A stretch of 9,209 nucleotides of DNA, taken from IMG/VR virus record IMGVR_UViG_2923307698_000010, one strand, 5' to 3'. The notes beneath the pieces were generated by a model. It was not told the DNA's origin. It saw only the letters and a program-made list of their open reading frames with translations, and did no database searches. Positions 3,280 through 5,244 of the stretch are shown here, one piece after another. This DNA is from a virus. Lineage: Duplodnaviria > Heunggongvirae > Uroviricota > Caudoviricetes. The number at the start of each line of letters is the position of its first letter. The stretch's first letter is position 1. A program made the translations under genes and the position numbers.

Positions 3280-3369
3280 ACAATATGTACCTCCGGTGTA
3301 CATATTACATGATTGAAATGAACCTTCAAGATACTTGTACCTTAACGGTACAAGGGTTTTAATTTCGTT
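3280..3369. promoter_or_regulatory. Divergent operator/promoter region (oR-like) between cro-like and cI-like genes
   Basis: Two palindromes with a TGTAC core: ATATGTAC-N7-GTACATAT (3283-3305) and CTTGTACC-ttaac-GGTACAAG (3334-3354). Candidate minus-strand promoter TTGAAG(3329-3324)-16-TAATAT(3307-3302) for cro; candidate plus-strand TTGTAC(3335-3340)-17-TTTAAT(3358-3363) for cI. Confidence 0.55.
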
Positions 3370-4044
3370 ATGAAAACAATCCATGACATCCGGCGGTCTA
3401 ACGCCAGAAAACTGAGAGATGGTGTTGGAGGGAATTCTTCCTTTGCCACTATGATTGATCGCGAGCCAACCCAGACCAGCAGGTTTATGGGAGATGGTGC
3501 TACTAAAAATATCGGTGACAGCATGGCACGACACATCGAAAAATGTTTCGACCTGCCTGTCGGATGGCTCGATCAAGAACACCAGACAACGAACATCACA
3601 AAAAAACCTGATGTTTCAATCACTAATAAACAAATCACATTAGTCCCTGTCATATCATGGGTACAGGCCGGAGCATGGAAAGAAGTTGGATATTCTGAGG
3701 TTGATTTGAGCACAGCAGAAACGTATCCCTGCCCTGTACCCTGTGGGGAAATGACTTATATCTTGCGGGTGATAGGTGATTCAATGATTGATGAGTACCG
3801 CCCGGGAGACATGATTTTTGTCGATCCTGAAGTACCTGCCTGCCACGGTGACGACGTTATTGCATTGATGCACGATACAGGTGAAACCACCTTCAAAAGG
3901 TTGATAGAAGATGGGACACAGCGTTATCTCAAAGCGTTAAACCCAAACTGGCCTGAGCCTTACATTAAGATCAACGGTAATTGCTCTATAATTGGAACTG
4001 TGATTTTCTCAGGAAAACCAAGAAGATACAAAATCAAAGCCTAA
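3370..4044 (+). CDS. CI-type prophage repressor with C-terminal LexA-like S24 autopeptidase domain
   Basis: 224 aa. N-terminal HTH region, an Ala-Gly candidate cleavage site (VQAGAW), a Ser nucleophile in the GDSM motif and a downstream Lys (FKRLIEDG), as in LexA/lambda CI. Confidence 0.88.
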   Translation: MKTIHDIRRSNARKLRDGVGGNSSFATMIDREPTQTSRFMGDGATKNIGDSMARHIEKCFDLPVGWLDQEHQTTNITKKPDVSITNKQITLVPVISWVQAGAWKEVGYSEVDLSTAETYPCPVPCGEMTYILRVIGDSMIDEYRPGDMIFVDPEVPACHGDDVIALMHDTGETTFKRLIEDGTQRYLKALNPNWPEPYIKINGNCSIIGTVIFSGKPRRYKIKA

Positions 4045-4056
4045 TCAATGTTTATG

Positions 4057-4079
4057 AACCTGCTTCGGCAGGTTTTTTT
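4057..4079 (+). terminator. Rho-independent terminator after the cI-like gene
   Basis: AACCTGC-ttcg-GCAGGTT hairpin followed by T7 (4073-4079), 13 nt after the cI stop. Confidence 0.65.
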
Positions 4080-4083
4080 ATAC

Positions 4084-4117
4084 TTGACAATGTACCTATG
4101 AGATACATAATGTACCC
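4084..4117 (+). promoter_or_regulatory. pL-like sigma70 promoter with operator repeats (oL-like)
   Basis: TTGACA (4084-4089), 16-bp spacer, CATAAT (4106-4111). Overlapped by direct repeats AATGTACC (4089-4096 and 4109-4116) and the inverted repeat ATGTA-N9-TACAT (4090-4108), the same TGTAC core as the oR palindromes. Confidence 0.55.
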
Positions 4118-4196
4118 AAGAGAAACAACAAACAGGCAGGACGCCCACGAAGTAGCCGCCTGGGGCATATGAAGTCCAGGATGATTCGTTAGCAAC

Positions 4197-4218
4197 AAAA
4201 AAGCGCCCTACAGGACGC
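4197..4218 (-). terminator. Rho-independent terminator of the convergent minus-strand gene
   Basis: On the minus strand: GCGTCC-tgta-GGGCGC hairpin followed by U6 (plus-strand A-run 4197-4202), ~40 nt after the stop at 4259. Confidence 0.5.
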
Positions 4219-4221
4219 TTA

Positions 4222-4233
4222 GCTCTTTAACAA
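4222..4233 (+). promoter_or_regulatory. boxA-like element (GCTCTTTAACAA) in the pL-proximal transcript
   Basis: 12-nt identity to the remembered rrn boxA core (GCTCTTTAACAA), ~110 nt downstream of the pL-like promoter. No convincing boxB hairpin follows. Confidence 0.3.
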
Positions 4234-4250
4234 TCTGGATATCCACAACA
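4232..4250. repeat. Left copy of 19-bp inverted repeat (AATCTGGATATCCaCAACA) flanking the minus-strand gene
   Basis: Matches the reverse complement of 4793-4811 at 18 of 19 positions; contains the perfect 10-bp palindrome TGGATATCCA. Confidence 0.6.
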
Positions 4251-4258
4251 GTAGTAAT

Positions 4259-4750
4259 CTACAGATTGCCGTTAAGTTTTCTGGACAACTCCTCAATGGA
4301 TGGAGGCGATACGTAATCCGGATTTTTATTCATCAGAAACTTATTTTCACAGTGGAGGCACCTGCTTTTATGAAAAAGCTCATCTTCGCTAACCGGGAAT
4401 GGTTGAAGTATCGATACTATCTTTTGTCCAAAACATTTTGGGCAAAGATGCATGGTTATGCTGCCACCGTTCACGATTACCTCCTTCGAGTATACAAAAG
4501 TACCCGACTCAAGTTGGTTAAGGATATAGCCTTCCGTCTGAGCCTCAAAGTTTTCGAATTCTGCAATTTTAGCTTTGAGAGAAGCATTTATTTCTTGATA
4601 AGAGCCCACCAGTTCAACGAGAGACACGCATTCGCGCTGAATAGACGCAAGCTTTGAGTTCAGCTCACCAATAGCCGCATTTACTTCAGCTTGAGTTTTT
4701 GCCTCGTTCATTAGTTTTGCAATCTGGGCTGTTTCACGAATAGCCGTCAT
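4259..4750 (-). CDS. Hypothetical protein: N-terminal coiled-coil plus C-terminal CxxC…CxxC zinc ribbon; moron-like gene between cI/pL and the early-left operon
   Basis: Start taken at ATG 4750-4748 (alternative GTG at 4774 with an AAGAG ribosome-binding site). Residues upstream to 5038 are Arg-rich, low-complexity and cross the inverted repeat and GC-rich leader, so are judged non-coding. Own terminator at 4197-4218. AT-rich relative to flanks by eye. C-terminal motif CPKC…(20 aa)…CLHC. Confidence 0.6.
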   Translation of the reverse strand: MTAIRETAQIAKLMNEAKTQAEVNAAIGELNSKLASIQRECVSLVELVGSYQEINASLKAKIAEFENFEAQTEGYILNQLESGTFVYSKEVIVNGGSITMHLCPKCFGQKIVSILQPFPVSEDELFHKSRCLHCENKFLMNKNPDYVSPPSIEELSRKLNGNL

Positions 4751-4792
4751 TGCTGCCGTTAATTCAGCGATCACATTGAATACTCTTATTGT

Positions 4793-4811
4793 TGTTGGGG
4801 ATATCCAGATT
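4793..4811. repeat. Right copy of 19-bp inverted repeat (TGTTGgGGATATCCAGATT)
   Basis: Reverse complement of 4232-4250 with one mismatch. Embedded in a 13-bp direct repeat TTGTTGTTGGGGA (4789-4801 and 4822-4834). Confidence 0.6.
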
Positions 4812-5061
4812 AACCGAATCCTTGTTGTTGGGGAATAACCAGGTCCACCTCGCCTGATGTGGCTAAAAGCAGGCACATAACAGCTAAGTATTTTCAACCA
4901 GAGAGAATCCTTAGCGTTGTGGTGAATGCGGCTCAGCGCACGCGGGTTAAGGTTGAGGCTGACAGTCGACCTTCTGTGGATACCCACCCGCCTGGTGTGC
5001 AACCTTCGCCAGGCACCGGGAGGCACCCGGCACCACAAGTTTATGCTGTGTGTAGTCCTGG

Positions 5062-5107
5062 CGGTACCAGTTTGTACCCTTGCTTCCGGCTGGTACCGTC
5101 CTTTTTT
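5062..5107 (+). terminator. Intrinsic terminator in the leader upstream of yfdP
   Basis: 9-bp stem CGGTACCAG (5062-5070) / CTGGTACCG (5090-5098) with a 19-nt loop, followed by T6 (5102-5107). Confidence 0.55.
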
Positions 5108-5244
5108 GCAAAACAGAGAAGAGCATCACCGGACGACGGGCTCATAACCCAATCCATCCGGGCGGCTGCCACCGCAGGTGTTCTTCTCTGTTTTGTGGAG
5201 AAACCAACCGACCTTGCAGGGTCGATATGATGAGGAGCAGCAAA

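Follow-up and report, generated by a model that had tools for sequence, protein, structure and literature searches.

A minus-strand gene lies next to the repressor gene of a lambdoid prophage in the window (the whole stretch of 9,209 nt that was analysed), and the question is what it encodes and whether its product serves the lysogen. We report that the gene, as judged from its sequence, is no orphan but a member of the recently characterised Rip1 family. It likely encodes a Rip1-family abortive-infection defence that is borne by the prophage, consists of a single protein and acts through a ring-templated pore. The "hypothetical protein" WP_000559922.1 and its relatives thereby gain a function class, and pore-forming defence of the Rip1 type is extended to a distinct enterobacterial clade, possibly with different phage triggers.

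Host prophage and position of the gene

The window matches a prophage of E. coli FORC_042, one that adjoins tRNA-Arg and fimZ, with 100% identity, and from position 1258 on it is 99.5% identical to Escherichia phage PhiR49_1. The features that frame the gene are as follows.

1-1257: IS3 element, interrupting an O-like replication gene (entry 1096-2133); the PhiR49_1 homology begins at 1258
Minus strand: ymfL and cro/ymfT
3370-4044, plus strand: cI/ymfK repressor gene (LexA family), convergent with the cassette (PGAP and PhiR49_1 annotation)
4056-4075, plus strand: cI terminator (terminator scan)
4084-4128, plus strand: pL-like promoter, TTGACA (4084)-16 nt-CATAAT (4111), an 11/12 consensus match; transcripts would run antisense through the cassette toward yfdP
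4090-4108 and 4110-4128: OL operators of the ATGTAC-N7-GTACAT type, overlapping pL
Plus strand, after the minus-strand gene: early-left genes yfdP, yfdQ, yfdR, an excisionase remnant and the integrase gene (PGAP)
8046-9209: integrase gene with an in-frame stop at 8748-8750 ("internal stop" according to PGAP)

The integrase of PhiR49_1 is intact (387 aa). Because of the IS3 insertion and the internal stop in the integrase gene, the copy of the prophage in the window is defective, though its rip1-like gene is intact. Two minor features concern the left part of the window: an ALIL frameshift pseudoknot is present at 282-398, inside the IS3-family element, and repeats at 1704-1892 in the O-like gene encode a PSKSDASKSD-type peptide (other frames read QNLT repeats), a stretch that looks like origin iterons.

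The promoter at 4084-4111 is a predicted repressor-controlled pL, and the OR sites between cro and cI (3285-3303 and 3335-3353) are of the same ATGTAC-N7-GTACAT type as the OL operators that overlap it. The preliminary description had placed the gene between cI and pL, i.e. in the position of rexAB in lambda. This does not hold, since the gene is located downstream of pL and is convergent with cI, and the analogy with rexAB is therefore loose. RexAB is likewise an accessory defence in the immunity region of a prophage, with a membrane-depolarising outcome; however, rexAB lies between cI and pL and is co-transcribed with cI, it is a two-protein system, and it has no homology to the gene in the window. 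That the gene is transcribed against pL was correctly described: it is on the minus strand, whereas pL and the early-left genes are on the plus strand.

The segment from pL to the cassette terminator (4128-4195, plus strand) is kept in Scandinavium, Enterobacter, Kosakonia and Erwinia loci. In the pL transcript this segment may serve as a leader element or as an antitermination element of the nut or put type. The window has no evident N-like gene.

Gene start, composition and distribution

4259-4774, minus strand: rip1-family gene, 171 aa from GTG 4774, stop codon 4259-4261 (PGAP WP_000559922.1)

The open reading frame ending at 4259, first described as one of ~163 aa, is real. Its start is probably GTG 4774, giving a product of 171 aa, and not ATG 4750 (163 aa), since all homologues and the PGAP model begin eight codons further upstream at a conserved M/V-IAEL, and the start codon in this clade is nearly always a GTG preceded by an AAGAG ribosome-binding site. 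The gene had also been called AT-rich relative to its flanks. With a GC content of 0.428 (whole window 0.483) this is correct for the right flank (4883-5244, 0.555) but not for the left side, where cI (0.446) and the left intergenic region (0.430) have similar values. The gene forms a single-gene unit in a lambdoid prophage context, with its own terminator and no co-oriented partner gene.

A 591-bp unit (4225-4815) is found in 650 of the 5426 complete E. coli genomes (~12%), including O157:H7 prophages, while the wider 2.4-kb context is common to only 90 of them. The same unit occurs behind different repressors (ymfK-type, XRE type and racR), and in the O157:H7 Rac-like prophages the homology to the window is confined to 4222-4882.

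Could the gene be a decaying or silent passenger of a defective prophage, with no current function? The lesions in the IS3-interrupted replication gene and in the integrase gene, together with the failure to find a clear promoter, would fit this explanation, which we nevertheless regard as highly improbable. An intact open reading frame is present in 646 complete E. coli genomes, dN/dS between the E. coli copies is 0.14-0.16 and the gene is thus under purifying selection, the protein is 100% identical in the complete phage genome records of PhiR49_1 and PhiR29 (whose stated host is E. coli ECOR13 or C), and the flanking regulatory frame is kept across genera (see below).

The promoter scan detected no consensus sigma-70 promoter for the gene, so that its expression in the lysogen is an assumption; a weak candidate, TTCCCC-17-TAATCT, was seen inside the leader by eye only. 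From the geometry of the locus it is plausible that the gene is expressed in the lysogen and silenced by pL transcription upon induction.

Family assignment and predicted fold

The Pfam, NCBIfam and PADLOC-2023 libraries contain no family for the protein, and matches were limited to coiled-coil noise. The check with PADLOC (2023) for a known defence system, proposed earlier, was accordingly negative. The protein matches PHROG 1244 (E=2e-58), to which no function has been assigned. A tblastn search against phage genomes gave three groups: the identical PhiR copies, Klebsiella phages at 48% identity, and HkaP of HK620/HK630 together with gp25 of DMS3, JBD30 and MP42 at ~29-30%. Specifically, the identity is 28% to HK620 HkaP (E=1e-21) and 29% to DMS3 gp25 (E=1e-19). 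An exhaustive profile search returned 2292 cluster representatives at E<=1e-3, all of ~145-180 aa. Searches of the literature by name for HkaP and HK446 Rip1 gave nothing useful.

The assignment to the Rip1 family is based on sequence as well as fold. A profile of 21 close relatives matched HK446 Rip1 (PDB 9oox_L) with E=2.9e-17, covering residues 6-151 of the query and 16-160 of the 164 residues of the chain, and BLASTP to the same chain gave 27% identity (E=2e-11). In a Foldseek comparison the predicted model matched 9oox_L with E=7e-7, probability 1.0 and a TM score of 0.72, the next match having E=0.05; both the long N-terminal helix and the C-terminal domain superimpose on the cryo-EM structure of Rip1. 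The claim that the product belongs to no characterised family was therefore an effect of where one looks: by full-length sequence and fold it falls in the Rip1 family, and it is merely absent from Pfam, NCBIfam and PADLOC-2023. The parts of the protein correspond to the following coordinates.

4538-4771, minus strand: N-terminal long helix, residues 2-79 (AF2 helices 2-24 and 28-79, mean pLDDT 87.8), counterpart of the amphipathic pore-forming half of Rip1
4325-4525, minus strand: C-terminal beta-rich four-cysteine (zinc-ribbon-like) domain, residues 84-150, counterpart of the ring-contacting half of Rip1
4442-4444, 4433-4435, 4358-4360 and 4349-4351, minus strand: cysteine codons, C111, C114, C139 and C142 (CPKC...CLHC)

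The N-terminal coiled coil and the CPKC...CLHC motif noticed earlier are thus recovered as a helix followed by a beta domain. In a set of 40 diverse members of the family, HK620 HkaP and DMS3 gp25 among them, only the initiator Met and the four cysteines are invariant, and the latter align with LCAQC...RCHRC of HK446 Rip1. The hydrophobic moment of residues 1-60 is 0.27-0.44, i.e. this region is only moderately amphipathic, and neither the sequence nor the AF2 model shows a transmembrane-like segment.

Regulators that bind nucleic acids often contain coiled coils and ribbons of the CxxC...CxxC type, the gene lies inside an immunity region, and the weak profile matches include RNA polymerase subunit P and a CxxC family. 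One could hence argue that the product is no defence effector but a zinc-ribbon/coiled-coil regulator, for example of immunity, of pL transcription or of some other process of host or phage. We consider this quite unlikely: the weak matches are far below the cutoffs, the protein has no HTH or other DNA-binding domain, and it is the whole protein and not the ribbon alone that aligns with Rip1. Moreover, family members are also present between the terminase genes of Mu-like Pseudomonas phages, far from an immunity region of any kind. A homologous phage protein of structural or regulatory function, which had been named as evidence against a protective role, was not found in these searches.

Proposed mode of action

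Rip1 (ring interacting pore 1) is described as a single protein that is encoded by prophages and provides abortive-infection defence (PMC13434031 on Patel et al. 2026, Nature 651:1060, doi 10.1038/s41586-025-10075-1). The mechanism as used here is that given in summary form in a review, a meeting report, a citing paper and the title of the PDB entry. According to these sources, Rip1 alone is non-toxic, escape mutations map to the portal in Pseudomonas phages and to the small terminase in coliphages, and 12 Rip1 subunits surround a ring of 11 terminase subunits in the case of HK446 Rip1 with the T6 small terminase. They also state that the C-terminal half of Rip1 touches the ring, that the N-terminal amphipathic helices form the pore, and that the outcome is premature lysis of the infected cell.

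The gene in the window resembles the characterised proteins (HK446 Rip1, PDB 9oox, and those of the Pseudomonas JBD/DMS3 type) with respect to full-length homology, size, fold and the arrangement of an N-terminal helix and a four-cysteine beta domain. It is also, like these, a single prophage gene that is antisense within a lytic operon. It differs from them in being only 27-29% identical and in belonging to a separate enterobacterial clade. At this level of identity the trigger specificity is not transferable, and what we infer for the trigger, pore and phenotype of this clade draws on the characterised relatives.

For the preferred reading, a Rip1-type defence, the course of events would be the following. 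The lysogen would make the 171-aa protein, which by itself would be harmless. Late in infection by a heterologous phage, ring-shaped oligomers of the small terminase (in coliphages) or of the portal would accumulate, and the C-terminal four-cysteine beta domain would bind around such a ring. The phage ring would then template a Rip1 ring of about 12 subunits, whose long N-terminal amphipathic helices would bundle to form a pore in the inner membrane, and the cell would be permeabilised before the progeny mature. The earlier guess of a lysogen-protective function is supported by this homology, both over the full length and in structure, since Rip1 is a characterised prophage-encoded abortive-infection protein.

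The cassette follows pL directly, in antisense orientation, and lytic transcription from pL would therefore oppose the gene. Upon induction of the host prophage this may damp the gene. For the question how an induced prophage escapes its own abortive-infection protein, the locus offers a testable case.

Alternating genes in the slot

The position of the gene varies between family members. In the window it is directly downstream of pL and cI, in HK620 and HK630 hkaP is antisense between N-hkaQ and cIII, and in DMS3 the neighbours of gp25, which is on the opposite strand, are gp24 and the large terminase gene. The last position corresponds to the one that the review gives for Pseudomonas Rip1, i.e. 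between the small and the large terminase genes (PMC13434031). A conserved non-coding frame surrounds the gene in the window; hkaP is without it.

In K-12 Rac the gene order is racR-ydaG-ydaF-sieB-kilR, with sieB on the opposite strand and in the same position and orientation as the gene in the window. The O157 and M1 Rac-like prophages have racR-DUF1391-rip1-family gene-dicB/exo, again with the rip1-family gene on the opposite strand. The true positional equivalents are hence sieB of Rac, lambda and P22, and hkaP of HK620. In 9 of 10 loci checked from other genera, the gene converges on a downstream neighbour that encodes an HTH_3 protein, with or without Peptidase_S24, the mark of a repressor. 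Together with sieB in the slot of K-12 Rac, this agrees with the view of the position as a hotspot for accessory genes. It shows that Rip1, SieB and several genes of unknown function alternate at one frame-delimited position next to the prophage repressor. In practice, the slot and its frame can guide the search for other defence genes of prophages.

SieB (PF14163) shares with our gene the slot, the orientation antisense in the early-left operon near the repressor, and the expected logic, i.e. abortive exclusion of other phages by a protein expressed in the lysogen. For P22, an Esc/sas self-immunity system was reportedly described by Ranade and Poteete in 1993. Does the gene then encode a sieB-type protein of superinfection exclusion or abortive infection, with a mechanism other than a ring-templated pore? 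HK620 hkaP is annotated as a putative superinfection exclusion protein, sieB occupies exactly the same slot and orientation in K-12 Rac, and in a Hafnia phage part of the same leader is found at a gene annotated as superinfection exclusion protein B. Yet the two proteins have no sequence similarity: the Pfam SieB profile gave no match to the product at E<=1, while K-12 SieB scored 1.5e-31 in the same library. The product also has no transmembrane-like segment in its sequence or AF2 model, and its full-length sequence and fold matches go to Rip1. A sieB-type protein with only the slot in common is thus unlikely, and membership of the Rip1 family is the reading we retain.

A side observation concerns locus L010 (Trabulsiella odontotermitis), where a truncated second Rip1-like N-terminal open reading frame (MLAEFTASLSAIKAS..., 5698-5934) lies directly upstream of the full-length gene, which suggests a tandem duplication or the stacking of cassettes in the slot.

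A conserved non-coding frame around the gene

The elements of the frame are:

4191-4220, minus strand: the cassette's intrinsic terminator, with its stem at 4220-4201 and a T-run behind it, weak on the plus strand (terminator scan)
4232-4257: 3' inverted-repeat arm, on the gene strand ...GGATATCCAGATT, starting 1-8 nt after the stop codon
4786-4811: 5' inverted-repeat arm, on the gene strand AATCTGGATATCCCCAACAACAATAA, ending 11 nt short of the start codon, immediately before the AAGAG ribosome-binding site
4775-4882, minus strand: conserved leader of ~110 nt, common to different cargo genes, with two CCCCAACAACAA motifs
4874-4870/4856-4852, 4862-4859/4848-4845 and 4844-4840/4824-4818: candidate helices of the leader

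The terminator reported earlier at 4197-4218 is present, with a stem that is better placed at 4220-4201 and followed by the T-run. The 19-bp inverted repeats said to bracket the gene were recovered as 4232-4250 and 4793-4811, which match at 18 of 19 positions, and the extended repeats (4232-4257 and 4786-4811) match at 22 of 26 (85%). An invertible DNA segment between these repeats was considered and rejected, as 646 of the 650 E. coli matches cover the full length in collinear order and inverted variants were not seen. The arms are not known to resemble Hin or Gin sites.

The proteins of other genera are only 47-62% identical, whereas hardly any variation is seen in the 3' arm, in the terminator or in the ~110 nt that precede the start codon. 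The arm core AATCTGGATATCC flanks the gene on both sides in Citrobacter, Scandinavium, Symbiopectobacterium, Edwardsiella and Kosakonia loci, and the terminator hairpin recurs after the 3' arm in other genera as well as behind other cargo genes. The leader is present in 1423 of the 5426 E. coli genomes, compared with 650 for the rip1 cassette, and in E. coli loci with other cargo (e.g. the ECs1072-family) the homology ends ~15 nt before the start codon. Among the IMG/VR matches listed for an exact 18-nt leader motif, at least 64 loci continue with a Rip1-family open reading frame and at least 55 with unrelated ones; the 55 listed other-cargo loci include at least 24 with the 3' arm, and in at least 18 of those the same terminator comes next. 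The alternative cargos in IMG/VR are PHROG 6315, PHROG 5286, a 98-aa open reading frame and small proline-rich peptides. No alternative cargo, that of E. coli included, has a match in Pfam or PADLOC. An identification of the alternative cargo with two transmembrane-like segments as SieB was rejected, since it had no support from Pfam.

In several IMG/VR loci (L122, L118, L156, L183 and others) the membrane-like PHROG 6315 cargo is flanked on both sides by very short proline-rich open reading frames (e.g. MSYDYEERHMPPFKRPEPPPKPDDSD). These recur in divergent loci and may be real micro-proteins.

Does the leader act as RNA? For a three-helix structure that was set by hand and is partly pseudoknotted, covariation among 37 distinct leaders gave 93.6% of cells paired, versus 21-47% with the partners slid. 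In seven pairs, of which helix 3 contributes four, both partners changed, and in 500 shuffles not one of the observed values was reached. RNAalifold alone predicted a weak consensus (-5.7 kcal/mol), the strand test of G.U versus A.C gave 11 versus 16, and no Rfam family matches the leader. In the fold of the whole presumed mRNA the 5' arm pairs with the 3' arm in the MFE as well as in the centroid structure (z = -3.75); the arms are invariant in sequence and therefore carry no covariation.

The predicted pairing is reminiscent of the fold-back of hok mRNA, in which a 5'-UTR segment by the ribosome-binding site pairs with a segment just before the terminator, and in both cases the mRNA is for a potentially membrane-damaging protein. 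The likeness is one of analogy only, with no sequence relation and no Sok-like antisense RNA identified. The conserved cargo-independent frame is the one element of the locus without a match to anything described. We tentatively propose, as a possibility that we would not call probable, that this frame, made up of the leader with its covarying helices, inverted-repeat arms of 13-26 nt close to the coding region and the terminator, is a cargo-independent regulatory module of a lambdoid "sieB slot" serving interchangeable lysogen-expressed cargos (Rip1, PHROG 6315, PHROG 5286, ECs1072-family and others). Post-transcriptional control, either by hok-like pairing of the mRNA ends or by RNase III-type processing of the antisense pL transcript, would then provide self-immunity on induction. 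If true, the frame would represent a cis-regulatory RNA of a kind not yet described, and its presence could serve to predict new defence genes.

Finally, directly after the end of the conserved leader, the stretch 4894-5109 (plus strand) gives a full-length match to the prophage sRNA family STnc100 (RF02076) with 39 bits and E=8e-6, i.e. below the gathering score of 47. It is overlaid by a frameshifted pseudo-CDS predicted by PGAP (4919-5230), and STnc100 has been tied to the PasD sRNAs in a 2026 preprint.
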